From an uncultured bacterium (lineage in GTDB: Bacteria; Oederibacteriota; Muellerivitia; Muellerivitales; Muellerivitaceae): a stretch of DNA of 64,000 nt. Shown here piece by piece: positions 19,371 to 53,136 of the stretch. The stretch spans positions 5,592-69,591 of the forward strand of contig CAZGWJ010000003.1 in the NCBI GenBank assembly GCA_964529445.1, read 5' to 3'. The position numbers and the translations under genes are program-made. The number at the start of each line of letters is the position of its first letter. The stretch's first letter is position 1. The notes beneath the pieces were generated by a model. It made no database searches. It saw only the letters and a list, made by a program, of their open reading frames with translations, and had not been told where the DNA came from.

Positions 19371-20531
19371 TTATCCGTTGCCAAGCACCATGATTCGTTC
19401 CCTATCCAAAGGAAGCTCATATACTCTCCGGTCGTTGCGTGACACTTTCTTGCCCTGGAAATCCAGGTAATGGGCCAGATCCGGAAATTGCTCCTCGATC
19501 TTCTTCTTAAGTCTCGACATTACAGGGCGCCAATTCTGAGCGTTGCGGATACTTTTCACCCACTCCTCATCCGTAAACATCCCCTTCCCCATAGCGAGTC
19601 TCTTGAGAATCGTCATATCTCTATCGTCAAAATCGATTTCCGCGTCCGGATCACCGCTGGGCGCGCTTAAAGCACAACCCCGCTTATGGCACGTAGCGCA
19701 GTTTTCAGCTTTGGGCTTGGTCGGGCATAGCTTATATCTGAACTTTCGTTCCGCCATGATCGCCAACCACCACAATTCACGCGGAGCGGCATCGAGTTCC
19801 TGGCCATTGATCGTTATCAAGTGTTGCTTATCGTCGAAATTAACAACAAGTCGAGGGGCTTCCAGTGCCTCGTTTAGCGCCGGAAATACTTTTCTCAGCG
19901 GCTTGTTCAGCAAGTCCTTCCGCGATCTCATAATGGTGTTTCTAAGTCTCGGGAACGGGACTTCGAACAGGTTTGTCCAATTCGCTTCTTTGGGCTTGTT
20001 TACGCGGGGATAGAACCAATTTGGGATCGAGTTGATCTTTGCTTCAGGACCGTTCAACAGGACATGAAACAGCTCGTCTTGCGGTCGTGCGTACACGGTC
20101 ATCCCAAGGATCATGTAGGCTGACATGGTCTTGCGCCCCCCCGCCAGCAGGACATGAAGGTCTACGTCGTCCTGGGCGGTCCAATAGCGCATCCTTTCGG
20201 CGATAGCCTCCTCCATAATCTCGTTGTCGTCCTTGTTGTCCAGGTTCCTGCTTTTCATCCCGCCAGGTATCCTCACAGTCGCCCTGGAGAATTCGGGCCT
20301 GGGGATCTTCTTGGAAGACAGCCTGTATTCCGAATACAGCTTTTCAACAGGGTTCTTCTTGGGATCAAGGAAGCCACGCTCCTCCATACGGGCGAGACCC
20401 GATGCGGTCGTGAGGACTTCGATAAGATGAATGGGCTTCTTTCTCTTGATCCAAAATTCGTACAGGGCATTTGTCAAGACCTGAGGTGTCATGCCCATTC
20501 CAGCAAGTAGGACATTTCGTCTAGCGGTCAT
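19371..20531 (-). CDS. CARF-domain protein (Cas_NE0113-like) with a C-terminal Cys-cluster / winged-helix-like region
   Basis: The N-terminus VLLAGMGMTPQVLTNALYEF and the second motif HVLLAGGRKTMSAYMILGMTVY match the two CARF signature motifs of the NE0113 family. The C-terminal CPTKPKAENCATCHKRGC resembles a zinc ribbon. Overlaps the upstream gene by 11 bp. Confidence 0.6.
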   Translation of the reverse strand: MTARRNVLLAGMGMTPQVLTNALYEFWIKRKKPIHLIEVLTTASGLARMEERGFLDPKKNPVEKLYSEYRLSSKKIPRPEFSRATVRIPGGMKSRNLDNKDDNEIMEEAIAERMRYWTAQDDVDLHVLLAGGRKTMSAYMILGMTVYARPQDELFHVLLNGPEAKINSIPNWFYPRVNKPKEANWTNLFEVPFPRLRNTIMRSRKDLLNKPLRKVFPALNEALEAPRLVVNFDDKQHLITINGQELDAAPRELWWLAIMAERKFRYKLCPTKPKAENCATCHKRGCALSAPSGDPDAEIDFDDRDMTILKRLAMGKGMFTDEEWVKSIRNAQNWRPVMSRLKKKIEEQFPDLAHYLDFQGKKVSRNDRRVYELPLDRERIMVLGNG

Positions 20532-34998: not shown

Positions 34999-35032
34999 AC
35001 ATCGTTACGCCCATTAATGACAATATAGGTTC

Positions 35033-36136
35033 CTAGTTCTTTCGCGCCCAAATGTCATACTCACACATTGCAGGCGAATTGGTTCTCACGAAGTATTCCG
35101 ACTGTCTTTTCCCGCCCGAGGCATTTCCCGCCTGCTTGATCGTCTCTATAACCCAGGGAGTTCCGTCTAAGGATCTTTTAATAATGCCGATCGGGTCCTT
35201 CTTTCGGTCATTGATCGATCCATAACGAATGACCATCCTGCAATTCTTATGAGCCGAATCAGCAGAATTAACCCATACCTTTTTCAACTCATCCGCAAAC
35301 TCATTGGGACTCCTGTGATTGACTTGCAACTTGTTGTGGTAGACAACTTTTGCAGGAGCCCCCAGGAACCACAATCGAAGCCATTGATCTGGGATATATG
35401 TTCGCATTCCATAATATGGCGGCGATGTGATTATCCAGTTATAGCTTCCCTTAACCGCACGATACGACGACCCCCGACGGCTATCGCCGCATATAACTTC
35501 GCTCTTCGAATCCGGGCATTCGCTTGTGTAATAGCGATTAGCGCGGCATCGAATAATTTCCATAACATCAACGTCAACCGGGTGTAATTGGTTTCTTTTC
35601 CAATACTTAACGGAGTAAGCAGGTTTAGGCGCGAACGTGCGTGTGCACTGATTCGATAAATACGACTGTCCTTTTTTAGGGCGTGGACCATGCAGCGCGC
35701 CCAATACAATTCCCAGTAATGCACGTCTTGCCGGAGAACGCGCATCTCGTAAAAGCGCAGAGCGCAACTTGCATACTTCCTTAAGTGTGTTCCTCGAATA
35801 CGCCCATTTCCAAAATTCCCCAGTCGGGCAATCAACAGCCGGTTCGGTTTTGAGGATCCGTTCCGCCGCATCGATAATATCGGATGGAGTTGTACAAGCG
35901 ATTTTCGCTCGGCTTATCGCCGTAGCCACGGGGTTACTATCAATTCCGGCGGAATCCATCCCAAGCATGCGCGCTGCATAGATCGTTGTACCCCGGCCGC
36001 AAAACGGATCCAGCACACCGCGCACAGTACTTTTGTGTTCACACAATATTTCATACGGAAAGCTCAATGGGAACATAGTGAAGTACGGGCATATACCATT
36101 CAAAACACTATTCGGTTCAGTCTGTGGTGTTTTCAT
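35033..36136 (-). CDS. DNA methyltransferase, amino-methyltransferase type (N6A or N4C)
   Basis: Motif I VLDPFCGRGTTIYAARMLGMDSAGIDSNP and motif IV ITSPPYYG. The ATG at 36136-36134 overlaps the HerA-like stop as ATGA. Confidence 0.7.
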   Translation of the reverse strand: MKTPQTEPNSVLNGICPYFTMFPLSFPYEILCEHKSTVRGVLDPFCGRGTTIYAARMLGMDSAGIDSNPVATAISRAKIACTTPSDIIDAAERILKTEPAVDCPTGEFWKWAYSRNTLKEVCKLRSALLRDARSPARRALLGIVLGALHGPRPKKGQSYLSNQCTRTFAPKPAYSVKYWKRNQLHPVDVDVMEIIRCRANRYYTSECPDSKSEVICGDSRRGSSYRAVKGSYNWIITSPPYYGMRTYIPDQWLRLWFLGAPAKVVYHNKLQVNHRSPNEFADELKKVWVNSADSAHKNCRMVIRYGSINDRKKDPIGIIKRSLDGTPWVIETIKQAGNASGGKRQSEYFVRTNSPAMCEYDIWARKN

Positions 36137-38277
36137 TTCTTTGGGTTTGGATTCGGGCCAGTTTTCACGTACGTCTTGTTCTCCGCATTCCGGAAGGCAT
36201 GCCACGCCTGATCTTGAGGACCGATTATCTCGTTCAGTGCGGTTACTACCATACGATATGCCATGTCGTCGCGGTTATCTATTTTCGGTGGAAGAGTGGT
36301 TACAAAAAGAGCCTTTACAGAACCCCATGCAGCACCCTCTCCACGAATGCGACCCAAGAGTTTTTCATCGGCCCTGAGGGCGTTAACACAAGCTTCGCGC
36401 AATACGGCAAGATTATCAACGGGTTCCTCGTCTGTTGATTCGGTACCCGGAACTGTCGGCTGTGTTTTCTGCGTCCCATCCGCAGCACCAGGTTGAGTAT
36501 TTTGTGGTTGCGTCTTAGGTGGCATCGACACCGAGGGTGCAGGAAATTCCCTCTGTACCGTTTGTGCGAATGTTTCAGCAGCAGGTTTGTTGTAGTCAGG
36601 GTCAAGCCGGTGGAACTTGTCCTCAAAAGAAAGAACGCGTAGTGAGATCGGGTAGGATTTTCCTTTAACGGAACTCCAAAATACACCTTGTCCAGGAATC
36701 GGTTCATTGAGTAGAGCAGATAGTATGTCATTACTGAAATGGGAGTTTGCCTTGGATACGCTTAAAAGATCAGCCGCGGATAGCAAATGGAAAACAAACC
36801 AATTGTCGCCTTGGCTGAGTATCTCCACCGGAATACTACCTGGTTGCTGTGTCACCATAAGAGCACCGAGATCGTATTTCCGACCTTCCTTAACCCAAGC
36901 TATGTATGGTTCTGCCGATGTGGCAGTATCGTTCAATACAGTCTGGGCCTCCTCGACCACGGCAATGGTAGGAATCGTCTGGGGGTTATCGGAGGTGAAC
37001 TCCGCTTGGTTACGATCAAAGATACGGCGCAGTATGATTCCAGAAAGTATAAGCGCCTGTGCTCCACGCATCTGCGATACATCCACGATACACAGCTTTC
37101 CTTGTTGCAACGCGTAAATGAGCATATCCATCAGCTGACTGCTTTTATCGTGGAGCATGCCGACAATGGTTGTCATGTTCCCTCTGGCCGCAAGAGCTTC
37201 GGCTTGTTGCTCTCGTTCAAGTGAGAGGATGCGCATGACATCGTCGAGTGGAGTCGAGTTTTTATTCACATCGATCAGATTGACCAATTCCTCCCATCGG
37301 GCGGAATCAAGACCTCTTAGCTTACGCACATTCTGCTGATCTTGACGATCCGGGCCTAGAGCGATGCCAATCACATCGGCCGGTCTTAGGCGGCGGATAT
37401 CCAGCTTAATTCCACCAGCGACGAATGACTGGTAGAAAGGGCTGCTACTACGCCTGGAAGTGAACACAACGAGTTTATCCTGTAGGGCCGGCACATCGCA
37501 CAATCCCGGCCGGCCCTTATCATCAGGCCAGAAATACTCCCCTTCCGGATCAAAGATCACTGTGCCGACGGGTACCTGGCGATTTCTTTTTTCCACGGTT
37601 GGTGTTTTCTCATAAAGTTGGCTGAACAAAAGCTTGTTAAGATTTGATTTACCGAATCCGGCGCGCGCAAAGATGAACGAGCGGCGCGAGACAAGACTGT
37701 CTACCGCAAATTTGACAAGTACTTCCGGCGATTTTACTTGCATCCAATCTTCAACCTTTAGCTGATCTCCTCCCTGTGCATAAATGTATTCACCGAATGC
37801 AAGATAGCCAATGGGAGAAGCCTTGATGTTGTGACCAGCCAGCTCCTGGAGTACCGGCCCCGACGGAAAGGCAACAGGGCTTCCCACATGTGGCAATCGT
37901 CTGTGTGAAGCCACGAAAGACAACTCGCCATTCGTCTTATGACGTATGACACCCAGCACCCTTATGTTGACTCGATACTTGAGGTAATCTTCGCGCAGGT
38001 TCTCTGGAACCTGTCGTTCTTCGCGGACCGCACGGATATTGAATTCTTCGCCCGCACCAGAAGATAGTTTTCCTTCGGACGAGAATGCGGTGATCCGCCC
38101 TAATACTGCCTCCTCGGGGGTCTCAAGTTGAACAAGGACAAATTGTCCATGCATGGGTCGGCACTGAAAATCACCCCGATACGGCAATACCAGGTCCGCG
38201 TGAAACTCCAGACCTCCTTCGCGGAAGCCACGAAACACGCCAACAATTTGGTCCTTTGGAAACAATTCTAAAGACAT
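36133..38277 (-). CDS. HerA/FtsK-like (DUF87) ATPase
   Basis: Walker A FARAGFGKSN, Walker B IAVVEEAQ, and an arginine-finger region typical of HerA-like hexameric ATPases. 714 aa. Confidence 0.6.
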   Translation of the reverse strand: MSLELFPKDQIVGVFRGFREGGLEFHADLVLPYRGDFQCRPMHGQFVLVQLETPEEAVLGRITAFSSEGKLSSGAGEEFNIRAVREERQVPENLREDYLKYRVNIRVLGVIRHKTNGELSFVASHRRLPHVGSPVAFPSGPVLQELAGHNIKASPIGYLAFGEYIYAQGGDQLKVEDWMQVKSPEVLVKFAVDSLVSRRSFIFARAGFGKSNLNKLLFSQLYEKTPTVEKRNRQVPVGTVIFDPEGEYFWPDDKGRPGLCDVPALQDKLVVFTSRRSSSPFYQSFVAGGIKLDIRRLRPADVIGIALGPDRQDQQNVRKLRGLDSARWEELVNLIDVNKNSTPLDDVMRILSLEREQQAEALAARGNMTTIVGMLHDKSSQLMDMLIYALQQGKLCIVDVSQMRGAQALILSGIILRRIFDRNQAEFTSDNPQTIPTIAVVEEAQTVLNDTATSAEPYIAWVKEGRKYDLGALMVTQQPGSIPVEILSQGDNWFVFHLLSAADLLSVSKANSHFSNDILSALLNEPIPGQGVFWSSVKGKSYPISLRVLSFEDKFHRLDPDYNKPAAETFAQTVQREFPAPSVSMPPKTQPQNTQPGAADGTQKTQPTVPGTESTDEEPVDNLAVLREACVNALRADEKLLGRIRGEGAAWGSVKALFVTTLPPKIDNRDDMAYRMVVTALNEIIGPQDQAWHAFRNAENKTYVKTGPNPNPKK

Positions 38278-38285
38278 CTTGCCCC

Positions 38286-39434
38286 CTATCCATAACGCCG
38301 CTGAGCGGGATCTTTGTCTTTCAGTCTGAACACATCAAGCGCGGTACCACCGTCGCCCAATTGAGCGCGTATACCTCTGAAAATCTCGTCCTGAAGAATA
38401 TCAAAATCGAAATCGACTAAAGCGGCATTCTCATGTGCCTTCTGGAGACATTGAGGATAAAAAGGCACGGGGAATCCGTTGATAGCGTCAGCCAACATGT
38501 ATCCAACGATCGCATCCGCGTTTGCTACCTGCGGCATGAATATATCCACTGGCCATATAGGATCGTTCGGCCTACTACCGAACTTAACAAAATACATCTT
38601 TCCACCCACGAATTTATTGATCTCCCCACTCCCGAAGTTATCATCACTCCCGCGCGCGTACTCATCCCAAACATATGCATTTCGCTCGAGCTCACGATCA
38701 ATTTCAGCATAAGCGGGATAGTTCGTTTGAAGAATACCCTCGATAGCCATGATCAGCCTATACCGATCCAGTACCTTGCTGGATTTGCACACGCCGGTCA
38801 GATATATACGCCTATGACTTTTCTTATAGTGTGCTTCGATCGAGCCTTCTATACCCTTCAGAAGCTTCGGGAACAAGTCGCCCGAGAACACCTTACTTCT
38901 CAGCAGTCCGTCACACACAAATATCGTATCTGTTGCAAATTCCTTGGTATGAAGTATGTGAAATAGAATCGCCCACTCTACCAATTCTCGATACACCTGC
39001 ACCCAGGAGGGGCTTACGGGTCGCCCAGGTTGTGGTTTACGGATCATCGGACTCAATTGAGTGATATTGTTCAGATTCAAAAAGGACATCATGTAACCCA
39101 GGGATGTTTTGGGTTTTCCAGAAGGATCAAATTGGCGAGCACTTAATCGATCCATGTCCATTGTGGGAGATACAACATCCAGACAATATTCGTTGTTGCT
39201 TGAGTCTACGACCCTTATTAACTGAACCAAAAACGGGTCGAATTGGATGCTGTTATTACCGCCATCTGTTCCCACCAAAGAAAAGGAGGTCGTCGATCTC
39301 GGTTGAATACGACGGACTTTTGAGGCCAACAAGCGCACTTCAGTACGCAATTGATCTATAAGGCCATGATCATCCGTTATCTGATCACGTATGCTTTTTC
39401 GCAGTTCTTCAATGCTATGAGGATCTATCGCCAT
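38286..39434 (-). CDS. NurA-like nuclease domain protein
   Basis: FSLVGTDGG and IFVCDGLL resemble the NurA Asp-containing motifs. It lies 8 nt upstream of the HerA-like gene, the usual HerA-NurA pairing. Confidence 0.45.
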   Translation of the reverse strand: MAIDPHSIEELRKSIRDQITDDHGLIDQLRTEVRLLASKVRRIQPRSTTSFSLVGTDGGNNSIQFDPFLVQLIRVVDSSNNEYCLDVVSPTMDMDRLSARQFDPSGKPKTSLGYMMSFLNLNNITQLSPMIRKPQPGRPVSPSWVQVYRELVEWAILFHILHTKEFATDTIFVCDGLLRSKVFSGDLFPKLLKGIEGSIEAHYKKSHRRIYLTGVCKSSKVLDRYRLIMAIEGILQTNYPAYAEIDRELERNAYVWDEYARGSDDNFGSGEINKFVGGKMYFVKFGSRPNDPIWPVDIFMPQVANADAIVGYMLADAINGFPVPFYPQCLQKAHENAALVDFDFDILQDEIFRGIRAQLGDGGTALDVFRLKDKDPAQRRYG

Positions 39435-39587
39435 TACTTCGCCTCATTTTGCCAGCAGGACTGTGAACGTTTTTAGGCGCAACGACACAATTTCAGCAGG
39501 TAGTTAGTCTTTTTGGCATTTTAGACCTCTGGGTCGGTTGCGTCTCTATATTTTCGATCTATAAGGCATTTTTTATATAACTCCAGC

Positions 39588-41774
39588 TTAAACTCCAGCC
39601 CTTTTGTCCTGCATATCTTCCAGAAATTCCGAGGCAGGGTTGATGCCTGTTATGAGGAGATGGTCACGCGCTCGGGTACACGCCACATAAAGCAGATGCC
39701 TTTCGGTGATGTATACATCCTCCAAATCCGCCTCATCTGCTATTGAGCTTATGCGAGATTGAAGTGGTATTACTTCATCATCACAAGCCATTACAACGAC
39801 CGCTTTGAATTCCAGTCCTTTTGCAAGATGCATTGTCCCTATGGATACTTTCCCGCCGGTTGTCTCTACGTTTTCATCCAGGAGCTTGTATTCAACACCC
39901 GCATTTTTGATGGCGGAAACGGCCCGCTCCATCTGGGCCTCCGATCGCACGAATACGCCCAACTCATGCGGTTCCACTCCCTCATCTCTCAACTGCTTTA
40001 CCCAGGCACTCACCTGCTTACCCTCGTCCGCTGTATTCTCGCAGATTCTAATTATCGGCGCGGGTCCGTTGAATACGGATACTGTGTTTCCTCTTTCCTC
40101 ACTGTTTCCATCCGCATCCGTTACCTCGGGTGCTAAGAGCCGATCCACGCGTGTACGGATCTGGTGGGATGTACGGTAGTTAACGTTCAAGGTGAAAGAG
40201 CGCCCCTGGATATTTACGCCGAGTGCCTTCCATGAGAATGGCAACTGGAATATCCGCTGTCCCAGGTCACCCGTAAAGAACAGTCTGTTTGGTTTATCGG
40301 CGCCCAACGCCGCCAAGAAGCGTAAGTGGGCCACACCCAAGTCCTGTGCCTCATCCGCGACAGCGTAGTCGAAAGGTGGATTACTACTTTCTCTGATGGA
40401 TTGCGCCAGTCTGGTGAACATTCCGGAATAAGTAAGAAGACCCTGCTCGCCAAGCCTCTTCCTCGCTTTATCAAATATTGCCCAAAGAATCTGTCGTTGC
40501 CCTTCTGATAATCGTGTTTTCCGTCCCAATCGGATCACATCTCGATATGCCTCCCAAGTCTCCAATTGCCAGGCATCCACCACTTGGTCCCATTCCATCT
40601 TGATAAACGCCAGACTGAATTTGTGACCGCCTACTTCGGCAGATGCGTCTTGCAAATATCCATTCACTTTATCCTTCGCGGCAATACCTACCTGGCCTAT
40701 TCGAGATTTATATAGACGGTGTCCTATTGCATCAATTGAGCATACTTCTAGCCTCTCTGCTAATCGTGGTTCAGCGCTGATCAAACGCCGTAGTTGTGCG
40801 TGGAGCGCATTGGCCAACACTTCCGTGTGCGTTGTCATTAAAACGCGGGCTTCGGGGTTAGTTCGCGCCAGATAAACGGCCCGATGCAATGCAACCACTG
40901 TTTTGCCAGTACCGGCTGAGCCAGTTACCCTCGCAGGTCCGCCATACTTTTTCTCAATCAGCTCTCTCTGATCCGGATGAAGGAAAATAGTCCACTTATC
41001 CCACGGATATTCCAGAGCCATCTTTAGTTCTTCGATATTCTTGATTAATCGGAATCGCCGCTTAGCATCCGGGTGTTCAAAAGGATTTGAAGTTAAGTGC
41101 TCAGTGCTCTCATGCGTCGTGTTCACCATGCCACTAATCGCCGCTGGAACAGTACAGAACATCGCCCCTTTAAGCATAGGCTCCATAACACCGCCGACAG
41201 CAACGCTTGGCGTTTTCGGGTGACCACCCGTAGCCAATTCCAGGAGTGATTCAGCCGCTTCGCTTGGCAAATGATCTGCTATATTCAAGATCGTATCTTC
41301 GGTCGCTTTCTTAACATCCTTCATCCATTCGAGTGGCACGCCCAGTCGCAATATCGCCTCATCGGGTATGTTCGAGAACAAAGGCGGTTTTTCAGGCTTC
41401 GGATATTCCACTTCCTTGTATTTAGGTATGAACACTTCCTTTACCGTCTCACGCACTTCAACGATCTGCGCCGCGCCTGTTTTGGGGTGCGTTTCAATCT
41501 TCCTGGTTTCAGCCCATTGATATGCCTTGTCGTGGTGGGCAACGTAGCACAACAAATAGCTGTTCTCTTTGCGATGAACGACCATGCGAATATCCCGCCC
41601 AACACGCGCGGACCAGAAATTCCGATCTCTCGAATGATCGATCTTGTGAAAGCTCAGACTTGGCAGGGTGGGATCTAATTGAAAATCCGTCACAGCTATT
41701 TTGGCGGCTTTTTGGTCCTCATTCGTCAATCGCCCCAAACTCTCAGTAAACGTATCGGCAATATACAGTTCCAT
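39588..41774 (-). CDS. UvrD-like SF1 helicase with an N-terminal ParE/RelE-like toxin-fold domain
   Basis: The N-terminal 90 aa (...FHKIDHSRDRNFWSARVGRDIRMVVHRKENSYLLCYVAHHDKAY) follow the RelE/ParE pattern. Helicase motifs: GSAGTGKT, VADEAQD, YVACTRAR. The ATG at 41774 overlaps the mod stop. Confidence 0.6.
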   Translation of the reverse strand: MELYIADTFTESLGRLTNEDQKAAKIAVTDFQLDPTLPSLSFHKIDHSRDRNFWSARVGRDIRMVVHRKENSYLLCYVAHHDKAYQWAETRKIETHPKTGAAQIVEVRETVKEVFIPKYKEVEYPKPEKPPLFSNIPDEAILRLGVPLEWMKDVKKATEDTILNIADHLPSEAAESLLELATGGHPKTPSVAVGGVMEPMLKGAMFCTVPAAISGMVNTTHESTEHLTSNPFEHPDAKRRFRLIKNIEELKMALEYPWDKWTIFLHPDQRELIEKKYGGPARVTGSAGTGKTVVALHRAVYLARTNPEARVLMTTHTEVLANALHAQLRRLISAEPRLAERLEVCSIDAIGHRLYKSRIGQVGIAAKDKVNGYLQDASAEVGGHKFSLAFIKMEWDQVVDAWQLETWEAYRDVIRLGRKTRLSEGQRQILWAIFDKARKRLGEQGLLTYSGMFTRLAQSIRESSNPPFDYAVADEAQDLGVAHLRFLAALGADKPNRLFFTGDLGQRIFQLPFSWKALGVNIQGRSFTLNVNYRTSHQIRTRVDRLLAPEVTDADGNSEERGNTVSVFNGPAPIIRICENTADEGKQVSAWVKQLRDEGVEPHELGVFVRSEAQMERAVSAIKNAGVEYKLLDENVETTGGKVSIGTMHLAKGLEFKAVVVMACDDEVIPLQSRISSIADEADLEDVYITERHLLYVACTRARDHLLITGINPASEFLEDMQDKRAGV

Positions 41775-44563
41775 CACTTTACCTTGAAGACCTTCATCAC
41801 TTCATCACCTAGGTGGTTAATGACTTTAACAGCAATACGTCCCGATTTCGGCTTTTCGAATGGCCTGGACGTATCGCTATGTAACGTCTCCCAGGCCTCC
41901 TTGTTGATCTCCGCTTTCAAGGTGGTTTTCAGGGAGCTATAGGGATCATTAGCACCCAAAAAGTATGCATGTCGTACGAAAAAGCTTTCTTCATTGTAAT
42001 CAGTATCGATGAACCAACACGCAATGCCGTCAGCACCATTACTCTCCACTTCCCCAGTACTAGGATGAAACACATCCACACCTTTGATCTTCACCTGCAC
42101 CCTTCCATCCTTTGTTGACAACAGATCGATATCCGGCTCACCAAATATGACAAATAGGTTGCCCTTGCCAGTATTTTTAAGATCCTCCGACATATGAAGG
42201 TCCGCATTCATCCTGGCCTTGAGAACCGGGATTCTACCAAGCTTGTTAAACTCGGTTGCATGAGCCTCATAATTGAACGCACACGTAATGAGGACATCAA
42301 AATCAGCATCTCCCGCCTCTTTAGCCGCCTCAACCAGGTCGGCCCGCAGAACTGTTCCAAATTCCGGGCCAATAAAAACAGCGGCGCGCCTCTCCTTTTC
42401 GCCCTCCATATATCGCCCTTCAGCACAGATAAATGATCCCGGCCATGGAGTTAGGGCAGTAAACGTAATTTTATCTTCCTTGTGAGCCTGCTGAACGCCA
42501 GCCACCTTCAAATTTTCCAATATCATTTGAACAAAGGTCTGCTTCTCACTATATTCAGCAGCCTTTTCAGATGCCTGATCAATCAATTCGTCATTTTCAT
42601 CAACACCCAGCATCCTATGTGGCGAAAGACTCTCGACTGTAAATGGCCCGGCGACACGCACCTTGTTCTTATCCTCAAATGGCTTGTCATATAGATATTC
42701 ATATTCCGCCTTTGAAGCGATTGATGCATCAATTTCTTTCTGCCGCGCAATTCTATTTTCCCACCACTCAGCATGATATTTCTTCGCATTTGCATTCCAT
42801 TTCGGATCTACATCACGAGATATTTCCCACTCTTGCAACTTATCTCTCACTTCATTATTCAATCGTTCACGCAGCGGTTCTAATACCTTTTGCCACTTAT
42901 CCCAAATGACGTCGATTTCAGCATTATTAGCTATTGATTTGAGCGTTATGTGCGGTACGCGTTCATAAACAAATCCATGCCGTATATCACCAATCGTAGG
43001 TTTTGTACTGGGCGCGGTTCGTGTTAGCTCACTTTCTTTGAGTTGCCCTTCGTGCGAATCGGAGAGAAGGTAATATGGATATCTCGCGCCCATAACACGC
43101 GTCCGAGCCAATGCAAGTGCTACACGAGAAGTGTCTATTGTTATCCATCTTCTTCCCCATTGTTCAGAGATATACGCTGTTGTTCCTGATCCACAAGTGG
43201 GATCAAGAACAAGGTCTCCTGGATCCGTTGTCATAAGAATACAACGTTGTATAACTTCCGGTAGTGTTTGAACAACGTATATCTTGTCCGATGTAAAACC
43301 GGATACACCCGTATCTAACCATGTAGCATTAATTGGTTTAACTGAGTAATCATCGAAATATCTCTTATAGCTAACAGTTTGTCCGCTAGTAATTAAACGC
43401 ATTGCTCGTCTCAAACGTTGCATTCCCAAAGGATAGCTGGCCTTCCAATGGGCGTTTTTTGCCGGAATATATGTACGGCCATTGATCTCCAGTGGCGTTT
43501 CAGTACCCGTCGAACCTTGACCCGTCGCATCGCCATAACGCCATATACGTACGCCCGAAGGTATTTGCTCAACACCACTCTGTTGTCCGCTTGACATTAC
43601 CGTCGTAATATACTTTCCATCTTCGAGCATTCGGTAATTGTTATCTTCAACATAACTTTTCGTTGTGTACAAGTTACGTATTTTTGTGCTCGATGTACTT
43701 TTTGAATACCAAAGTATATTATCCCCTATTCTGCTCAACCCTTTTGTGGCGAACCCACCTGTTGTTCTGTATAGAATTGTAGAAATATAATTGTCCTCCC
43801 CAAACACTTCGTCCATTAAAGCGCGTATGCGATGTATATTCTCATCCCCAATTTGCACAAACACTGAACCCGTTTCAGTTAGCAAATCTAAAGCAATAGT
43901 TAAGCGATCCCGCAAATAAGTTAAATAACTATGAATATTATCTCTCCACGTATCGCGGAATGCCTTAACCTGCTCAGGTTCACGCGTAATGTGGCCCGCA
44001 TTTCCATCTTTCACATCGCGGCTTGTAGTACTCCACTGAAAATTGCTGTTAAACTTAATACCATACGGGGGATCAATGTAAATACACTGCACCTTTCCTC
44101 GCAACCCCTCTCTTTCGCACATACTTGCCATTACCTGCAAGGAATCACCCAAAATCATACGATTAGACCAATTCTGATCGTGCTGGTAAAATTCCGTTTT
44201 ATCAACGCCCTTAGGAATCCCGTTAAAATCAGCAAACAAATCAGGTGTATATTCTCCCGCCTCATGTTCGCTTTCCCGCGTTTGGCGCAACAAGTCATCA
44301 ATGAGTGCCTTAGGATGAACCTTCTCTTGAATATACAGGGGCGGTACATTAACTACCAAATCACTCCAATTCTGAACATCTTTTCCTCGCCATACCAATT
44401 GTGGATCCAAATCACGATTACGCCTCACATAGGCCTTTTGAAAAGGCGTCTGATCCTTGTTCTCTAATATCGATTGATATTCAGCTGTCGGTATGTTTTT
44501 ACGCTTGGCCTCATCGTGTTTAATGGCCTCTACCGACTTGCCCGAGCTTTTCTTCTTGGCCAT
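41774..44563 (-). CDS. Type III restriction-modification methyltransferase (Mod, beta-class N6-adenine) with an extended C-terminal region
   Basis: NRMILGDSLQVM, motif IV IYIDPPYGIKF and motif I LVLDPTCGSGTTAYISEQWGRRWITID. At 929 aa it is longer than a typical Mod. Confidence 0.7.
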   Translation of the reverse strand: MAKKKSSGKSVEAIKHDEAKRKNIPTAEYQSILENKDQTPFQKAYVRRNRDLDPQLVWRGKDVQNWSDLVVNVPPLYIQEKVHPKALIDDLLRQTRESEHEAGEYTPDLFADFNGIPKGVDKTEFYQHDQNWSNRMILGDSLQVMASMCEREGLRGKVQCIYIDPPYGIKFNSNFQWSTTSRDVKDGNAGHITREPEQVKAFRDTWRDNIHSYLTYLRDRLTIALDLLTETGSVFVQIGDENIHRIRALMDEVFGEDNYISTILYRTTGGFATKGLSRIGDNILWYSKSTSSTKIRNLYTTKSYVEDNNYRMLEDGKYITTVMSSGQQSGVEQIPSGVRIWRYGDATGQGSTGTETPLEINGRTYIPAKNAHWKASYPLGMQRLRRAMRLITSGQTVSYKRYFDDYSVKPINATWLDTGVSGFTSDKIYVVQTLPEVIQRCILMTTDPGDLVLDPTCGSGTTAYISEQWGRRWITIDTSRVALALARTRVMGARYPYYLLSDSHEGQLKESELTRTAPSTKPTIGDIRHGFVYERVPHITLKSIANNAEIDVIWDKWQKVLEPLRERLNNEVRDKLQEWEISRDVDPKWNANAKKYHAEWWENRIARQKEIDASIASKAEYEYLYDKPFEDKNKVRVAGPFTVESLSPHRMLGVDENDELIDQASEKAAEYSEKQTFVQMILENLKVAGVQQAHKEDKITFTALTPWPGSFICAEGRYMEGEKERRAAVFIGPEFGTVLRADLVEAAKEAGDADFDVLITCAFNYEAHATEFNKLGRIPVLKARMNADLHMSEDLKNTGKGNLFVIFGEPDIDLLSTKDGRVQVKIKGVDVFHPSTGEVESNGADGIACWFIDTDYNEESFFVRHAYFLGANDPYSSLKTTLKAEINKEAWETLHSDTSRPFEKPKSGRIAVKVINHLGDEVMKVFKVK

Positions 44564-44564
44564 T

Positions 44565-47500
44565 TCACAATCCTCGTTGCGTTGTATTGGCGTTTGTCTG
44601 CTCTAGCATTTTTCCAAACAACCCTTCAACTTTTGCTTTGAAATCAGCTTCAATTTGATAAACCTCAGTTAATTCAGCGAAAGCCCATCTCCCATATCTT
44701 TTTGTATAGTTCACGCCAGGTACCCAGTAATTCTCCATGGTGGCCTTCTTGTCCTTCGCGTCTTCTCCTCGATATCCCTTAATCTCAACCACGAGATTTA
44801 GTAAATCATCGTCTCCATGACCGTCATCCACATGCACTATGAAATCCGGCCGGTATTTGCGCGTTTCCGAACCATAACGATACGGAACTTCAAATCCCAG
44901 ACTATGATTCTTCACATAGGACTTAACTCGAGGGTGATTTTCCGCAACGCGACAGAATTCACCCTCCCAGTCACTATCCAATATGACCCAGTTGATATGG
45001 CACTTACGACTATCCGTTTCCCAGCGATTTGTCTTCGTCGTGAAGAAATTAACATGGATACTGGAACCAACAGGATTATATGGATCAAGCACAACAGTAA
45101 TTGGCCGTTCACCCACGAAAGCTCGTGTAATGGCTGCCGTGATCCGCTCACATGCCATATCTGCCAACATCTTGTAGCGCAGTTGGGCGGGAAATGTACC
45201 GCCCCTACAAACCAAGCATTCCTCAAGCCATTGCCTGGCAATACGCTTTAATTGCCCGAAGTGCTGAAGCTGCGGCTCACCACCGGGATCTCGCCACTTG
45301 GTCAATACCAGATGTGACACAAGTTCGTATAGTATTTGCGACGGACGCACATCTCCGGTATGCACCAAGTTCAAATCGGTTCTCTCGCCAATAATCCCGG
45401 AATTCTGTGTCTCTGTGGCTCCCACAAGATCAGGCGTTAAAACCAGCTTAGAATCTTCGTTGAATTTGGCCTGTAACTTTTCTTCAGGGAGTTCCACGCG
45501 ATACCCAACAACCCTAGGGAATTTGATTTCCAAAGCGTCCCTCTCGGGACTAATGGCCTGGACATGGATCGTTTCCCTCGGTGCTTGCGGCGGTGCCACA
45601 ACCGGCTTAGCCGTGAAATCGAAAGGAATGCCAAGAATATCGGCGTACTCCACACTGAATAAGCCCTTATTGGGGCCATCCGTATTCAGATCATATGATT
45701 GGCGACGCAATGCCCGCCCGATAACCTGCTCGCAAAGAAGTTGTGTGCCAAAAGCCCTGACACCGAGTACATGGGTAACAGTGCTTGCATCCCACCCCTC
45801 GGTGAGCATTGAAACCGAGACCACACAACGGATCGAACCACCTAATCTTCCCTCTTTACCGACCGTATTCATTGCCTCGCGGAGAAGTTCTTGATCTGTG
45901 ATGTTCTCCGCCTGCTTCGGATCACCTGTCCGCTCGATGATCTCTCTTCTGAACCTCTCTATTTCTTCCGCCGCCATCTTGTGGAAATTGTCATCCAACA
46001 CTTCGCCAGACTCCAATTGTTCGCTATCAACTAAGAGAGTATTTGGGCGGGCATACGGGTTTCCGTTATCATCAAAATTGCGGAACAAAGCCAAACGCCC
46101 GTTATTAAACGACTTGGAACTGTCTTCATTCTCCTTATAAAAACCCGATATGTAGTCATATACCAGTTTTGAGGTGGATGTGTTGTTGCAAACCACGATG
46201 AAACAAGGCGGAACCCTGATGCCGGCCTTCTGCCACAGATCGTACGTCTTCTCGTAATGCCCATAGAGGGCTTCAAGTGCAGTTTGCAACTGCGGTGGAA
46301 TACTCAACGGATCCAACGAACCAGCGTTTCCCCTCCCTTTCTTCGGCATTTTCTTGCCTATGTGCTCCCACAGATTTCGAAACATAGGCATCTCGCTGCC
46401 CGGAATATTGTCGGCCACAGGCACTCTCGGCAATTTAACAATGCCACACTCAATGGCATCCATCAGCGAAAAATCCGTCATCGTCCAAGGAAAAAGTGTT
46501 CCCTCGGCATAGCCAGATCCTCTTAAGAAGAAAGGCGTAGCCGACAGATCAAATATCTGAGAAATCCCCAGCTTTCTTTTTACGATCTCAAGGCCATTGA
46601 TCCATACCCGAGCGGCTTCGTTATTTTTCTCAGCCTCTTTCTTATCATCAGCCACCAATTCTTCATCGGATTCAGCCTCTGGTTTTTCACGATAGCAGTG
46701 ATGCGCTTCGTCATTTAAAACGACAACGTTCTTCATCCCCATCAATTCCGGCATCACCCTTTGCAACATTTGACCTTCGGTTTCAAGAGTATTCAGCTCC
46801 TCACCCCGGCCTTGCAAAAGGGAACGCCCACCCTTGGACAGTTCAATTCGCTCCTTGAGGTTCAATGCGTGGTAGTTGGTTATGACGATCTTCGCTTTTT
46901 TCAAATCATCCAGCATATCCATGGGGACTAATTCACGCTTGGCGTAATAGGCATCCGGATCATTAGGCTGGAGAACTCGCAGCCGGTCTTTAATGGTCAG
47001 CCCAGGTGAAACGATCAGAAAGCCGGTTGTGAATTTATGACTCTGTGGCCGACGTACAGCATTGATAGTTTGCCACGCTATCAACATAGCCATAACCGTA
47101 GTTTTGCCTGCACCGGTTGCCAGTTTTAGAGCAAGACGCATGAGTTCTGGATTGGCTTCACGGTTCGCATCAACCAAATGCTCCGTGAATATCTTGCCCT
47201 CTTTACCTAATTGTGGGGCTACTTCCGTCAACCATATGGCGGTTTCAACCGCTTCGATCTGACAGAAGAAAGGGCGTATGCCCGTATAGGGATAATGTCG
47301 CCAATGTTCAAGCAAACGCGCTGTCTCTGGCGATACACGCCAATAGTTGGAATTAGGCAGCTTTCTCCATTTATCCACCTCTTGGCGCAGTTGATTGATG
47401 ATCGGCGTAGGATCGTACTGCTGTAACTCTGTGGAGAGACCTCTACCTTCATCAAATATGATTTGTGCTTGTTCCGTCGTATCCCTTTGGCGTCTAGCCT

Positions 47501-47645
47501 TTGGGACCGGCACAATGAATTTGGCCGGTCTGCGAGATTCCATTATCGTTTGGGTAGGCTGGCCCTCGGAATCCAATTCCCAATGCCTGGCGGGATATTC
47601 ATAAGGTGAGTTTAAAATCGGCCGCTCAAAGAATGCTTCAGGCAT
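44565..47645 (-). CDS. Type III restriction enzyme Res subunit (SF2 helicase plus PD-(D/E)xK nuclease)
   Basis: N-terminus MPEAFFERPILNSPYEYPARHWELDSEGQPT is the conserved Res start. Walker A ATGAGKTTVM, DEAH box VVLNDEAHHC, and C-terminal RPDFIV...VVEIKG. The ATG at 47645 is preferred over the TTG at 47660. Confidence 0.75.
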   Translation of the reverse strand: MPEAFFERPILNSPYEYPARHWELDSEGQPTQTIMESRRPAKFIVPVPKARRQRDTTEQAQIIFDEGRGLSTELQQYDPTPIINQLRQEVDKWRKLPNSNYWRVSPETARLLEHWRHYPYTGIRPFFCQIEAVETAIWLTEVAPQLGKEGKIFTEHLVDANREANPELMRLALKLATGAGKTTVMAMLIAWQTINAVRRPQSHKFTTGFLIVSPGLTIKDRLRVLQPNDPDAYYAKRELVPMDMLDDLKKAKIVITNYHALNLKERIELSKGGRSLLQGRGEELNTLETEGQMLQRVMPELMGMKNVVVLNDEAHHCYREKPEAESDEELVADDKKEAEKNNEAARVWINGLEIVKRKLGISQIFDLSATPFFLRGSGYAEGTLFPWTMTDFSLMDAIECGIVKLPRVPVADNIPGSEMPMFRNLWEHIGKKMPKKGRGNAGSLDPLSIPPQLQTALEALYGHYEKTYDLWQKAGIRVPPCFIVVCNNTSTSKLVYDYISGFYKENEDSSKSFNNGRLALFRNFDDNGNPYARPNTLLVDSEQLESGEVLDDNFHKMAAEEIERFRREIIERTGDPKQAENITDQELLREAMNTVGKEGRLGGSIRCVVSVSMLTEGWDASTVTHVLGVRAFGTQLLCEQVIGRALRRQSYDLNTDGPNKGLFSVEYADILGIPFDFTAKPVVAPPQAPRETIHVQAISPERDALEIKFPRVVGYRVELPEEKLQAKFNEDSKLVLTPDLVGATETQNSGIIGERTDLNLVHTGDVRPSQILYELVSHLVLTKWRDPGGEPQLQHFGQLKRIARQWLEECLVCRGGTFPAQLRYKMLADMACERITAAITRAFVGERPITVVLDPYNPVGSSIHVNFFTTKTNRWETDSRKCHINWVILDSDWEGEFCRVAENHPRVKSYVKNHSLGFEVPYRYGSETRKYRPDFIVHVDDGHGDDDLLNLVVEIKGYRGEDAKDKKATMENYWVPGVNYTKRYGRWAFAELTEVYQIEADFKAKVEGLFGKMLEQTNANTTQRGL

Positions 47646-47778
47646 CGTTTTCAGCCCCAATCTTCTTGAATCTCAAAGCTATCTCCCACCTCATTTTTTC
47701 GACAGGATAAACAGATTACTACCGCCCACGTACACGGACAACCACGAAGTGGCAATCACAGAACATTTTGCAGGTATT

Positions 47779-48153
47779 CTACTGATCGAATACCTCCACA
47801 AAGTGTTTGGAAACTAATATCTTTGAAAACAAAGCATACCGTGGTCCGATAATCATGCCTTTCACACCATTAAGTGGCTCCTTGTTGCTGATGGGACCTA
47901 TGGTGTTGGGTTCGCCCTTATATGTGACAACCCATTTCTTGGGGCCATTCGAATTTTCGATCTTTGCAATAGTCGCCCAATGGGTTAACGAAGAAACCGG
48001 CGCCGACTGATATATCGCAATGTACTTAAGTTGTGGCGCGATCTGAGGATTGACGCTTATGCCATACCAGCACTTTTCGCCGATAAATACTTTATTGAAA
48101 TTCTCTACCTTCGCAGGAACAACAATGGTATCCCAATGTGGATTGATGACCAT
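47779..48153 (-). CDS. Hypothetical protein
   Basis: 124-aa ORF in AT-rich island DNA. Confidence 0.35.
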   Translation of the reverse strand: MVINPHWDTIVVPAKVENFNKVFIGEKCWYGISVNPQIAPQLKYIAIYQSAPVSSLTHWATIAKIENSNGPKKWVVTYKGEPNTIGPISNKEPLNGVKGMIIGPRYALFSKILVSKHFVEVFDQ

Positions 48154-48586: not shown

Positions 48587-48838
48587 ATGGATAACGCTAA
48601 TAACTGTGGTAGATACTTGAACATTCGGGAGGCATCGTCATTTCTCGGGATCGCCTCAGGCACTCTTTACCAGTGGGTCTGTAAAGCTCCTGGCCTTGCC
48701 GACCCCATACCCTTCGTCAAGTTCAGTGCCCGCTGCCTTCGCTTCCCTTTCAACGATCTTGTTGCCTGGTCCGAACGCCGCCGTTCAGGCCCCATGCATC
48801 CCACCACAACCAATAAGCGTTTTCGCGTTCCGGCATAG
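48587..48838 (+). CDS. AlpA/Xis-like helix-turn-helix excisionase or regulator
   Basis: YLNIREASSFLGIASGTLYQWV...PFVKFSARCLRFPFNDLVAW matches the AlpA family pattern. Directly upstream of the integrase. Confidence 0.6.
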   Translation: MDNANNCGRYLNIREASSFLGIASGTLYQWVCKAPGLADPIPFVKFSARCLRFPFNDLVAWSERRRSGPMHPTTTNKRFRVPA

Positions 48839-48875
48839 GTCATCCTCTTCTCGGCTGATATCACGAGGCATTTCA

Positions 48876-50042
48876 GTGGCCACTTTAAGCATCAAACCCG
48901 ATCACAGACGTGGCGGTTTTGCCGCCTATCTTGTGACGTCCCTCACCAGGGACGGTAGGCGCTTACGCCAGTGGGTCAGCCTTGGCCATTTCTTGACCAA
49001 GCGGGATGCCGAGCGGGAATTCAGGAGGGTCGAGGAACAATTCAACCGTGAGCAGATACGTCTGATTCACGAGCAAAAAGACTACACAAGCGCGATCCCA
49101 ACGCTTACCGATTATGTGCCTACCTATCTACAACAAGCCGAGGGGATACGCCTTAATTCCTCACAGGGCACCACTCGATATCGCTTTGCCCTAAACAATA
49201 TCTGTCGATACCTGGGTGACATCAAACTCCATGAGCTCTCACCTGCCCATATTGACCGCTATGTCGCTGCCCGGCGTAAGGAATCCACCCCCAGGGGTCC
49301 CATCAGTCCCAAGACCGTCATCAATGAGCTGGTTCAGTTATCAAGCCTATGTACCTGGGCCATTCGCCAAGGGGTCATCAAGGAACATCCCTTTCGGACA
49401 CCCCAGCATCCCCTATGCTCATATTTCCCCAAGGTCGAGAAGAAACCCAAGACCTACCTGACCTTCGAGGAACAGGTAGTACTCCTCAATACCGCCAAGC
49501 CAAGCCCCTATGCCTTTTGCGTCGTTTCCCTACTCCTTCACCTGGGTATCAGGCGTGGTGAACTGATCAACCTAAGGCTAGCCGATGTGGACCTGAGCCG
49601 CCGCCAGATCACCGTGAGGGCCGATAAGACGAACGATTTCCGCATCCTACCCATCCATACCAACCTTGTACCGATCCTCGAAAAGATGCGCGTTTTTCGG
49701 CCTACCCGTGGCGGCTGGTATCCACGAGACGAACGTCATTGGGAATATCTGCTTTGTGATGACCAGGGCGGGAAGTTGGAGCAGATGGGCAAATCGTTCT
49801 TGAAGCGTCTAGCCCTAAAGGCGGGTATCGCCAAGCATCTTACGCCCCACGTTTTTAGACATACGTTTATATCGAACCTTCGGGCATCGGGGTTTTCCTC
49901 ATACGAGATCCAATCACTTACAGGTCACAGGAATGTATCGACTTTAGAGGGGTATGGCGTCAATGCGCCAAAAGGTCTGGATGTCAAAATTGGCTCTGCT
50001 TTTCCTTTTCATTCGCTTAGCACCACAAACACGTCCGTATAA
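48876..50042 (+). CDS. Tyrosine recombinase / phage-type integrase
   Basis: C-terminal catalytic region ...LTPHVFRHTFISNLRASGFSSYEIQSLTGHRNVSTLEGY (R..H..R...Y). In-frame GTG at 48876 chosen, since there is no internal ATG; the ORF extends up to 48696. Confidence 0.75.
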   Translation: MATLSIKPDHRRGGFAAYLVTSLTRDGRRLRQWVSLGHFLTKRDAEREFRRVEEQFNREQIRLIHEQKDYTSAIPTLTDYVPTYLQQAEGIRLNSSQGTTRYRFALNNICRYLGDIKLHELSPAHIDRYVAARRKESTPRGPISPKTVINELVQLSSLCTWAIRQGVIKEHPFRTPQHPLCSYFPKVEKKPKTYLTFEEQVVLLNTAKPSPYAFCVVSLLLHLGIRRGELINLRLADVDLSRRQITVRADKTNDFRILPIHTNLVPILEKMRVFRPTRGGWYPRDERHWEYLLCDDQGGKLEQMGKSFLKRLALKAGIAKHLTPHVFRHTFISNLRASGFSSYEIQSLTGHRNVSTLEGYGVNAPKGLDVKIGSAFPFHSLSTTNTSV

Positions 50043-50155: not shown

Positions 50156-52102
50156 ATGACCCTAAAACGCAAGCCCGGCCGAAACGATCCTTGTTTCTGT
50201 GGCTCAGGTAAGAAATTTAAGAAATGCTGTCTGTCACGATCCCGCGGCATTGCTACACCACATCCTAGAGGGTTTAAAATCGAGAAATCGTTTGACGCAG
50301 GCACCGACAACAAATTTATATCAAGGCTTTCCATTGGTTTAGGCGAATTATTCGAATTCTCCGACTTTTCAAAAGATTTGAAAAGACAAACGTTCGAGAT
50401 ATTACATTCAATCTCGAAAGAGCTCGTATTAGCCGAAAGAATATTTGATCCTATCAATCAAGAAGTTATCAGTTTATTGAAGTCCTTAAATGATACAGGC
50501 ATTCCGATCGAAAAGAATGGGATTCCAACCATTCCCGTCAAATGCACTCGCCTTCACACAACAAATGATTTTTTCGAACACGCCGAAACAATTCTTCTCT
50601 CATTTTTCAAGTTAATCAATCTCATCCTTGGCACCCACATCCCTCACAGTAATCCGGCGCAATTATACGGCTTCGCGCTCACCAAGTTTGGAGAAGATCA
50701 CACTTTGACAAAGTTGCTCAAAGATGACCACATATGGATTTCAGAACTTGAAGAGTATATTGTTCAATCAAAGATGCCAGCATTCATTGATTCTCTATCG
50801 GATTTCCGCGCCAGTTATGACCCCGAGAAAGATCTTGTCACCATCATCCCACCCTCATTTTCAAACGGGAAAGACATTGTCGACACCCTAAAGCCTACAA
50901 TACATAACCTATTTACTTTCGTTGAAGAAATCAGCGCTTTCATCCTGGCAGAACACCTTGATAGACGATTATGCATTTACGATATCCCCGAAGCTTCCCG
51001 ATCTGAATATTACCCGGGACGTTTTAGGGTCGGGGTTAGACCTCAAACCGACATCGAGTCATTAAAAGACGACCCCACACTATCAAAGATATATCGTCTC
51101 GGCGGCCGCTTATTTCACATGAGAGAAAAAATCAGAGAAGAATCTTACGGTTCTCTACGCCCCATTATCCATTGCGAATTCCAAGGAATGATGCACGTTG
51201 CCGCATATAACAGGATGTATAGAGGCAAGTGGAAAACATTTGTGGATTTTCTTCTCGATTACATAAAAATGACCTTTGGCAAGGAATGGTGGTCTAAACA
51301 AGCCGGTTTACCGATAGAAAATCGATCGCCGGTATTAATCTGGGCTGAAAAAGCTTATCTATTCCAGAAATCCCATTCAAACCAACCACAACCCGACGGT
51401 TGTTATGAATCAGAGCCCAATGGGCCAATGTTTACTTACTTAAGCTTGGCCTACGATTTGTTTGTATTAGAAGACAATCATCTTTTGCAGAAATCATTGA
51501 TCAACAGAATGAAACAGTCGGATATAACAAACTTTTGGGGCGCGCGTTACGAAGCTAAAGTAGCTGCAATTCTTATAAAATCCGGATTCAACATTAGTTA
51601 TGAAGACGAGAGGGATGGGACAAATAAGCACCCAGAGTTCATAGCCACTTACCGCAAAACTGGCGAACAGATTGCTGTTGAAGCAAAAAAACGAAATAGA
51701 ACGGTTGTTCCCCCAAATGAAAAAGAAATCCGTTTGGGAATTGTCGGCCTTCTCAAAAGCGCTGTAAGCAAGTTCAACAATATACCTTTAGTAGTATTCC
51801 TAGAACTCGACTTGCCGCCAATACACGGTAATCTGTTCCAAAAACCATGGTTTAAAGAGTTATTGGAATCTCATGAAAAAGCAGGTGTAAGAGATGTGGA
51901 CGGGAAGGACCTTTGCAATATGATCGTTTTTACCAATGACCCAGTTGAAGATCCAACCGAGCCTAATAAATACCCGGCTCATAGCGACGTCGAGACAATT
52001 TCGATGGTACCCAAAGCATCGACAACTTCTTCAGAACCCCTCTACAGGATTATGTCGTTTGTCCGAAAGCGTGCGCTCATACCCAATTGGTTCGACGAGT
52101 AA
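50156..52102 (+). CDS. SEC-C metal-binding motif protein, otherwise uncharacterised
   Basis: N-terminal NDPCFCGSGKKFKKCC is a SecA-C-terminus-like zinc motif. 648 aa, AT-rich. Confidence 0.5.
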   Translation: MTLKRKPGRNDPCFCGSGKKFKKCCLSRSRGIATPHPRGFKIEKSFDAGTDNKFISRLSIGLGELFEFSDFSKDLKRQTFEILHSISKELVLAERIFDPINQEVISLLKSLNDTGIPIEKNGIPTIPVKCTRLHTTNDFFEHAETILLSFFKLINLILGTHIPHSNPAQLYGFALTKFGEDHTLTKLLKDDHIWISELEEYIVQSKMPAFIDSLSDFRASYDPEKDLVTIIPPSFSNGKDIVDTLKPTIHNLFTFVEEISAFILAEHLDRRLCIYDIPEASRSEYYPGRFRVGVRPQTDIESLKDDPTLSKIYRLGGRLFHMREKIREESYGSLRPIIHCEFQGMMHVAAYNRMYRGKWKTFVDFLLDYIKMTFGKEWWSKQAGLPIENRSPVLIWAEKAYLFQKSHSNQPQPDGCYESEPNGPMFTYLSLAYDLFVLEDNHLLQKSLINRMKQSDITNFWGARYEAKVAAILIKSGFNISYEDERDGTNKHPEFIATYRKTGEQIAVEAKKRNRTVVPPNEKEIRLGIVGLLKSAVSKFNNIPLVVFLELDLPPIHGNLFQKPWFKELLESHEKAGVRDVDGKDLCNMIVFTNDPVEDPTEPNKYPAHSDVETISMVPKASTTSSEPLYRIMSFVRKRALIPNWFDE

Positions 52103-52994: not shown

Positions 52995-53069
<75 letters not shown>

Positions 53070-53136
53070 CGTCGGAACGGCGGTTCAGGCGCCGTATTCT
53101 ACGCGACCTCCATGGATTTTCAACCCCATCAAGGCC

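Follow-up and report, generated by a model that had tools for sequence, protein, structure and literature searches.

The question raised by this locus is why a helicase with a toxin-like N-terminal domain should directly follow a type III restriction–modification (R-M) pair, and whether it works with that pair, as a lethal back-up to it or independently of it. In the window (the whole 64,000-nucleotide stretch analysed, positions 5,592 to 69,591 of contig CAZGWJ010000003.1 in assembly GCA_964529445.1, from an uncultured bacterium of the Muellerivitaceae), three long open reading frames (ORFs) follow one another on the minus strand:

44565–47645, minus strand: Res, with an ATG start; upstream of it the frame is open as far as a TTG at 47660
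41774–44563, minus strand: Mod, 929 residues
39588–41774, minus strand: helicase (ArmD-like), 728 residues counted from the ATG at 41774

The co-inheritance of these genes, their operon structure, the predicted fold of the helicase N-terminus and its residue conservation form the basis of the interpretation favoured here, namely that the locus is probably a three-gene defence module in which a Res/Mod pair of the BPTD_3080 family is joined by an ArmD-like helicase that, by analogy with ARMADA II, would work together with the restriction complex and not as a suicide module.

The gene junctions can be read directly from the sequence. A single nucleotide separates the Res stop codon from the Mod ATG ('tga a ATG'), with GAGGA upstream, and Mod and the helicase overlap by one nucleotide ('aag TGATGg'), the A being common to the TGA of Mod and the ATG of the helicase. 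A preliminary description of this stretch, made from the letters alone, had reported, without naming the strand, the three genes at 39588–47645, the one-nucleotide res–mod spacing and the overlap of the Mod stop with the helicase ATG, and in all of these it was accurate; the motifs that it quoted were likewise all located at the expected places in Res, Mod and the helicase. Its length of 729 residues for the helicase holds if translation is taken to begin at the GTG codon immediately preceding the ATG; homologues, however, start level with the ATG at 41774, which gives 728 residues and also removes the concern, raised at the time, that the start might be misannotated. In a simple scan of 38–49 kb of the window, no promoter or terminator signal stood out from the background.

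Res belongs over its full length to NCBIfam NF046055 ('BPTD_3080 family restriction endonuclease'; 1358.5 bits, the cutoff being 800), with residues 6–1005 aligned to positions 1–969 of the 970-position profile. It carries FFERPILNSPYEYP at residues 5–18, the superfamily 2 (SF2) helicase motifs TGAGKT (Walker A, residues 177–182) and DEAHH (residues 312–316) and a C-terminal PD-ExK nuclease (RPDF at residues 932–935 and VEIKG at residues 953–957), and it matches the Pfam families ResIII and RE_endonuc; no relative of solved structure was found by sequence search. Mod aligns from end to end with the PADLOC MTase_III model PDLC03632 (1393 bits, residues 3–928 on profile positions 5–983 of 983), matches Pfam N6_N4_Mtase and has the motif order of a beta-class N6-adenine methyltransferase, with DPPY (residues 164–167) followed by DPTCGSGTT (residues 454–462). 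Its nearest solved chains are the type III Mod subunits 6k0w and EcoP15I 4zcf. These scores, together with the thousands of full-length relatives of the helicase found by sequence search, argue that the three-gene finding is not due to chance. PADLOC 2.0 has no full-length model for the window Res or for the helicase. Two further regions of Mod can be delimited:

~residues 241–440 of Mod, minus strand: recognition region, hypervariable, with 17–45% identity to the window among 29 complete related loci
~residues 500–929 of Mod (window 41774–43063), minus strand: C-terminal extension of ~430 residues, conserved at 50–91% across phyla and without a domain assignment

The variability of residues 241–440 fits a swappable target-recognition domain, and the last 90 residues of Mod are ~90% conserved over the same 29 loci. 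The pair resembles the classical type III systems EcoP15I and EcoP1I in three respects: its methylase is of the beta class of N6-adenine enzymes and related to the EcoP15I and 6k0w Mods, its restriction subunit has SF2 helicase motifs together with a PD-ExK nuclease at the C-terminus, and the two proteins are classified as type III by PADLOC and as a restriction endonuclease by NCBIfam. It differs from them in its res–mod order, in the conserved ~430-residue extension of Mod, in a Res without a sequence-detectable solved relative and in the presence of a conserved third gene. The gene order and the length of Mod had been described as departures from the usual arrangement; both are present, but neither is peculiar to this locus. 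Since Res is a full-length NF046055 protein and Mod an end-to-end PDLC03632 protein, both features are ordinary for the family, and they are found in every related locus that retains both genes. The res–mod order and the 929-residue Mod are thus the norm for the BPTD_3080/PDLC03632 family and not a local anomaly.

The association with the helicase extends well beyond the window. A scan of one genome per species produced at least 573 helicase relatives, distributed over Nitrospirota, Acidobacteriota, Verrucomicrobiota, Planctomycetota, Pseudomonadota, Chloroflexota (Dehalococcoidia), Bacillota and other phyla, and the closest 80 loci (L001–L080) were fetched. The 3' end of Mod lies upstream of the helicase on the same strand at 65 of the 75 assessable loci (the full-length Mods showing 59–72% identity), and Res is upstream of Mod at 36 of 37; seven of the ten loci without an upstream Mod have at most 2.1 kb of upstream DNA. 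Pairwise identities co-vary between the helicase and Res (r = 0.43), the helicase and Mod (r = 0.34) and Mod and Res (r = 0.33; all p < 0.01, Mantel permutation). The link between the helicase and the type III system, at first noticed in the window only, is therefore an evolutionary one that reaches beyond it. An annotated example is the P. amygdali plasmid pPae2250X, in which a BPTD_3080 endonuclease, a small ORF, a methyltransferase and a UvrD-helicase overlapping by one nucleotide follow one another. Among the 63 loci with downstream DNA, no antitoxin or other ORF family is seen 3' of the helicase in three or more. The helicase is always the final gene of the unit, and it has no antitoxin partner. 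Res, Mod, optional cargo genes and the helicase are inherited together, in this order, across many phyla.

The helicase itself is divided as follows:

41457–41774, minus strand: residues 1–106, predicted RelE/YoeB/YafQ-like domain (fold at residues 1–90, extra beta-hairpin at residues 91–106)
41220–41372, minus strand: residues 135–185, small helical domain (GVP...W..DV...LP.EA.E.LL.LA.G)
41091–41189, minus strand: residues 196–228, 33-residue linker insertion between the helical domain and the helicase core
39588–41081, minus strand: residues 232–728, UvrD/GajB-like superfamily 1 (SF1) core, the span including the stop codon

The core contains the motifs GSAGTGKT (Walker A, residues 285–292), DEAQD (residues 474–478) and YVACTRAR (residues 696–703) and matches Pfam UvrD-helicase and UvrD_C, in agreement with its earlier identification as a complete UvrD-like helicase; the PADLOC models GajB and NERD+UvrD give partial matches. 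The likeness to GajB of Gabija lies in the UvrD-like SF1 core, GajB models being among the best PADLOC matches, whereas GajB has no RelE-like N-terminus and the matches are partial (84 bits). No match to GajA (an OLD-family nuclease) was found by PADLOC among the neighbouring genes, so the locus is not a Gabija system. The helical domain is modelled with a block-mean predicted local distance difference test (pLDDT) score of 86–90 even with a shallow alignment. The linker insertion is specific to this locus, being absent from the 23 homologues in an alignment of 24 sequences, and two homologues have a different, unrelated insertion slightly upstream in the same linker.

The preliminary description knew of no account of a toxin-fold domain fused to a helicase, but the same architecture has been published as ArmD (PMC12458937; PMC13463889). 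ARMADA type II consists of armA (SNF2), armB (a PglX-like methylase), armC (a YprA/DruE-like giant helicase–nuclease) and armD (Bell et al., 2025 preprint; PMC12458937). Deletion of ArmD or the substitution K266A abolishes ARMADA II defence and D454N weakens it; infected cells remain intact, viable and metabolically unchanged, so that the defence is direct and non-abortive (PMC12458937). A requirement for armD was also found in enterohaemorrhagic E. coli (EHEC; mBio 2026, PMC13463889). The window helicase aligns over residues 5–718 with an ArmD-type protein of an E. coli plasmid (locus L082; 31% identity, E = 8e-98, cores collinear), in which the Walker A lysine is K266 and the Walker B aspartate is D454, as in the published ArmD numbering. 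Because this alignment is full length and the aligned protein carries the ArmD residues, the window protein is, by sequence comparison, an ArmD homologue, and its fusion is the one already described.

The window locus is nevertheless not an ARMADA system, because no DruE/YprA-like match was found among the nine genes spanning 29192–48153 with Pfam, NCBIfam or PADLOC and the genes upstream of the helicase are a type III Res and Mod. Distant N-terminal relatives (30–38% identity) occur on E. coli, Thermus and cyanobacterial plasmids, where their genes stand immediately after those for a giant DruE-like helicase and a large methylase, in some cases accompanied by an SNF2 helicase; DruE, DrmD and DrmMI matches are present at the ARMADA loci L082–L084 and L090. 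The window protein and ArmD share the N-terminal RelE-like domain, the small helical domain (common to the type III-linked and ARMADA clades) and the GajB-like UvrD helicase, and each is the last gene of a methylase-containing helicase–nuclease operon. They differ in their partners, type III Res and Mod in place of the ARMADA II genes with their YprA-like member, and in clade: the window clade is separate, with His instead of Glu at position 43 and with W54 and H67, and it often has cargo genes upstream of the helicase. A third ArmD-like context, without a methyltransferase, is observed on a Qipengyuania citrea plasmid (L089, 7787–19757), where the order is a TM0106 RecB-like nuclease, a 240-residue hypothetical protein, the ArmD-like helicase and a 1900-residue DUF4011 helicase.

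A search of the N-terminus of the window helicase against Pfam produced a sub-threshold hit (ParE_like, E = 1.2e-3, 19 bits against a cutoff of 24.4). Over 44 diverse family members, the same database gave ParE_like for 19, HigB-like for 12 (best E 7e-5), Gp49 for eight and YoeB for two, in addition to eight unrelated families with one member each, and many homologues carry the Joint Genome Institute (JGI) pipeline label 'mRNA-degrading endonuclease RelE'. A first AlphaFold2 (AF2) model of residues 1–190, based on 14 close homologues, had N-terminal pLDDT values of 40–60 and was not used for the fold search. The addition of ARMADA-clade sequences, giving 44 sequences from two clades, cured the low confidence, and the second model of the N-terminus (meb88fc33c0f0) has a pLDDT of 91.6 and a predicted template-modelling (TM) score, pTM, of 0.78. 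Its topology is beta–alpha–alpha–beta–beta–beta–beta–alpha, followed by the extra beta-hairpin.

A Foldseek search of the PDB with this model finds RelE/ParE-superfamily toxins throughout the top 50, the best being YoeB (2a6r, E = 9e-6) and the matches to YoeB, RelE and YafQ spanning E values from 9e-6 to 1e-3. M. jannaschii RelE (3bpq, target-normalised TM score 0.76) is near the top, in agreement with the supplement of the ARMADA preprint, which gives RelE 3BPQ as the best structural match of the ArmD domain (PMC12458937). M. tuberculosis RelK, YafQ, HP0894 and T. thermophilus RelE are also matched; ParE2 appears from rank 34 onward, and the RelE domain of the CRISPR effector Cami1 is at rank 40. 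The assignment of the modelled N-terminus to the RelE/ParE superfamily is solid. With target-normalised TM scores of 0.67–0.76 for YoeB, RelE and YafQ against 0.55–0.60 for ParE, the model is closer to the RNase branch than to ParE; the RelE/ParE-like domain first proposed is thus retained as to superfamily by AF2, Foldseek and Pfam, with its position within the superfamily shifted away from ParE. A sequence profile search of the PDB with the N-terminal alignment gave nothing relevant, and in a search of 1.84 billion representatives the best 150 matches were near-identical fragments, with no distant architectures among the matches listed.

Alignment of the N-terminal profile with the E. coli YoeB sequence (verified against 2a6q) is weak (E = 0.014 as a single comparison, hhalign probability ~3%). 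It places R63 of the window protein on the catalytic R65, position 43 on the catalytic E46 and the remaining conserved residues (H81, D82 and Y85) in the columns of H83/Y84. Over 483 domains, R63 is conserved in 481, H81 in 478, D82 in 455 and Y85 in 467, while position 43 is occupied by His in 363 of 367 type III-linked domains and by Glu in 113 of 116 domains of the other clade. We infer from this conservation that the RelE-like domain is likely to contain an active or ligand-binding pocket. The domain is similar to the type II toxins RelE, YoeB and YafQ in fold and in having, at corresponding positions, a conserved Arg in the 'hRlvY' strand and a conserved His/Tyr that follows the last strand; it differs in being fused to a helicase instead of forming a free 90-residue protein and in its extra hairpin at residues 91–106. 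A type II toxin–antitoxin pair consists of a small toxin and an adjacent antitoxin, whereas here the domain is part of a 600-residue helicase fusion and it is Mod that abuts the start codon in the window.

In the mechanism that we propose for the three-gene module, Mod would mark self DNA, and the Res/Mod complex would recognise and cut unmodified DNA. The SF1 motor could then engage the DNA ends, or the stalled complexes, that this produces. If ARMADA II is a guide, the helicase would be essential, would depend on its ATPase and would act non-abortively. As the nucleic-acid target of the tethered RelE-like domain we infer RNA, which it may bind or cut locally, either in invader transcripts or in the ribosomes translating them, while the rest of the helicase protein would hold it in check in cis. 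The helicase may dock on the C-terminal extension of Mod, a contact that is purely conjectural.

The same domain could alternatively serve a back-up abortive layer, as the preliminary description suggested, in which the helicase would sense failed restriction or a phage product and free the RelE-like RNase, shutting down translation so that the cell dies or arrests. The domain shares its fold with ribosome-dependent toxins that cleave mRNA, and the RelE domain of Cami1 is among its structural matches; the catalytic-type residues are conserved and, with no antitoxin gene, any control must act in cis. ARMADA II, however, leaves cells intact and metabolically unchanged in a direct, non-abortive defence (PMC12458937), and its ArmD is essential for first-line protection and is not an add-on (PMC12458937; PMC13463889); the sequence, moreover, is silent as to activation. 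An abortive role is therefore considered unlikely, though it is the strongest of the alternatives.

Several observations weigh against the three-gene module favoured here. The 80 loci are the relatives nearest to the query and not a random sample. Only a minority (13 of 66) have Mod and the helicase directly adjacent as in the window; in the remaining intervals 0.1–10 kb is inserted, mostly on the same strand. At three or four loci (L030, L045, L048 and L073) the helicase is intact and Res/Mod is decayed or absent. Distant BPTD_3080 loci, for example on Picosynechococcus PCC 7002 pAQ5 and on Rhodococcus and Sphingobium plasmids, have other neighbours and no such helicase, and on plasmids the helicase co-occurs only with Res proteins at least 51% identical to the window Res. 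The putative RNase activity of the N-terminal domain is deduced solely from conserved residues. The intact helicases beside lost R-M genes and the intervals of up to 10 kb would suit an independent single-gene defence helicase that stands at the edge of an R-M family through shared defence islands, as would the other partners of ArmD-like proteins, namely ARMADA (L082–L084 and L090) and the RecB-like nuclease with a DUF4011 helicase (L089). Yet the order and orientation of the genes do not change from phylum to phylum, the helicase tracks Res and Mod in identity no less closely than Res tracks Mod, there is no other conserved neighbour, the ArmD-like gene stands last or nearly last in helicase–nuclease operons elsewhere too and in ARMADA II ArmD cannot defend alone, so that independence appears less probable still than an abortive role. 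An addiction or stabilisation element, in which the toxin-like domain would kill post-segregationally and so retain the R-M island, would accord with the toxin fold and with the occurrence of the locus on plasmids and integrative islands but is highly improbable, as there is no labile antitoxin partner, the domain is covalently joined to a 600-residue ATPase needed for ARMADA II defence and R-M pairs already stabilise themselves.

The three-gene module thus remains the preferred reading, in a form that allows for the inserted genes: because most related loci hold defence genes between Mod and the helicase, tight coupling of the two is not required. The question whether homologues of the fusion always stand next to type III R-M genes, posed when the fusion was first noticed, has a divided answer among these closest relatives, mostly yes for a same-strand Mod upstream (65 of 75) but no for direct adjacency. 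Recurrent cargo includes IetA with IetS (six loci), GmrSD/HEC-06 (three loci), the DRT reverse transcriptase UG14 (three loci), SIR2 with HerA (three loci) and an AAA_16 ATPase (four loci). Families without a name are also found, one of 182 residues (eight loci) together with one of 147 residues (six loci), and one of 254 residues (six loci). The gap between Res and Mod is sometimes filled too (17 of 36 loci). The TGATG at the helicase start is kept in many of the cargo-bearing loci, which suggests that the inserted genes are expressed as members of the operon. At the insertion point upstream of the helicase, no DNA element common to the loci was found beyond a few closely related pairs.

At the pAQ5 locus of Picosynechococcus PCC 7002 (L087, 7989–16591), a UPF0175/DUF3368 toxin–antitoxin-like pair lies between Res and Mod. 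The place of the helicase after Mod is taken there by a 624-residue protein in which TGRTGSG (P-loop-like) and HAEEN (deaminase-like) motifs were noted by eye; it was considered as a divergent helicase and rejected, since comparison showed it to be unrelated.

Textbooks describe type III R-M systems as enzymes of two subunits, a definition that a conserved third gene in a large cross-phylum clade would extend. The locus also offers a simpler setting for ArmD function, with two partners instead of the three giant ones of ARMADA II, in which ArmD is essential. The interval between Mod and the helicase appears to be an unrecognised intra-operon site at which defence cassettes accumulate, which matters for automated defence annotation. 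More tentatively, and with clearly less assurance than for the module itself, it is possible that a widespread type III class (more than 570 species) is obligately three-component. The ArmD-like helicase might then be a portable third arm for type III R-M, ARMADA II and the RecB-like/DUF4011 system that couples DNA restriction to local RNA- or ribosome-directed activity, with the Mod–helicase interval as a docking slot for co-expressed IetAS, GmrSD, DRT and SIR2–HerA. In the library searched, no paper linking ArmD-like proteins to type III R-M was found, which is not proof of absence, and none was found on BPTD_3080, on a ParE-like domain with a UvrD-like helicase or on a GajB-like protein with type III R-M. 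As far as found, the type III context of the ArmD-like helicase and the cargo slot are new.

The three genes lie in a low-GC region of the window at ~8–53 kb (8000–53100), with 39–52% GC against 60–65% in the flanks, which resembles an integrative defence island. It is densely filled with further genes of defence type, none of which co-occurs with the helicase elsewhere:

48696–50042, plus strand: tyrosine integrase, at the right edge of the island
50156–52102, plus strand: SEC-C-motif protein, adjoining the integrase
52996–53070, minus strand: tRNA-Gly, at the right edge of the island
35033–39434, minus strand: 382-residue protein, HerA-like ATPase (714 residues) and N6/N4 methyltransferase (390 residues), directly 3' of the helicase
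29192–34998, minus strand: 1259-residue RecD-like protein and 676-residue UvrD-like helicase, with a 4-nucleotide overlap
19371–20531, minus strand: Cas_NE0113-domain protein, among the genes of 15364–21993

In the set directly 3' of the helicase, the HerA-like ATPase is divergent and the 382-residue protein has no match in Pfam, NCBIfam or PADLOC; these genes may represent an undescribed HerA-based system. The RecD-like protein is a full-length match to the PADLOC candidate PDC-S68 (1410 bits). The UvrD-like gene beside it (29192–31222) was considered as a paralogous copy of the ArmD-like helicase and rejected, its core being 24% identical and its 190-residue N-terminus different. On the minus strand at 15364–21993, three large ORFs (735, 523 and 490 residues) without a family match lie beside the Cas_NE0113 protein. 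A short SEC-C-domain protein is encoded just 3' of the helicase on pPae2250X (L081, 14334–14522), and its likeness to the SEC-C-motif protein of the window may be a coincidence.

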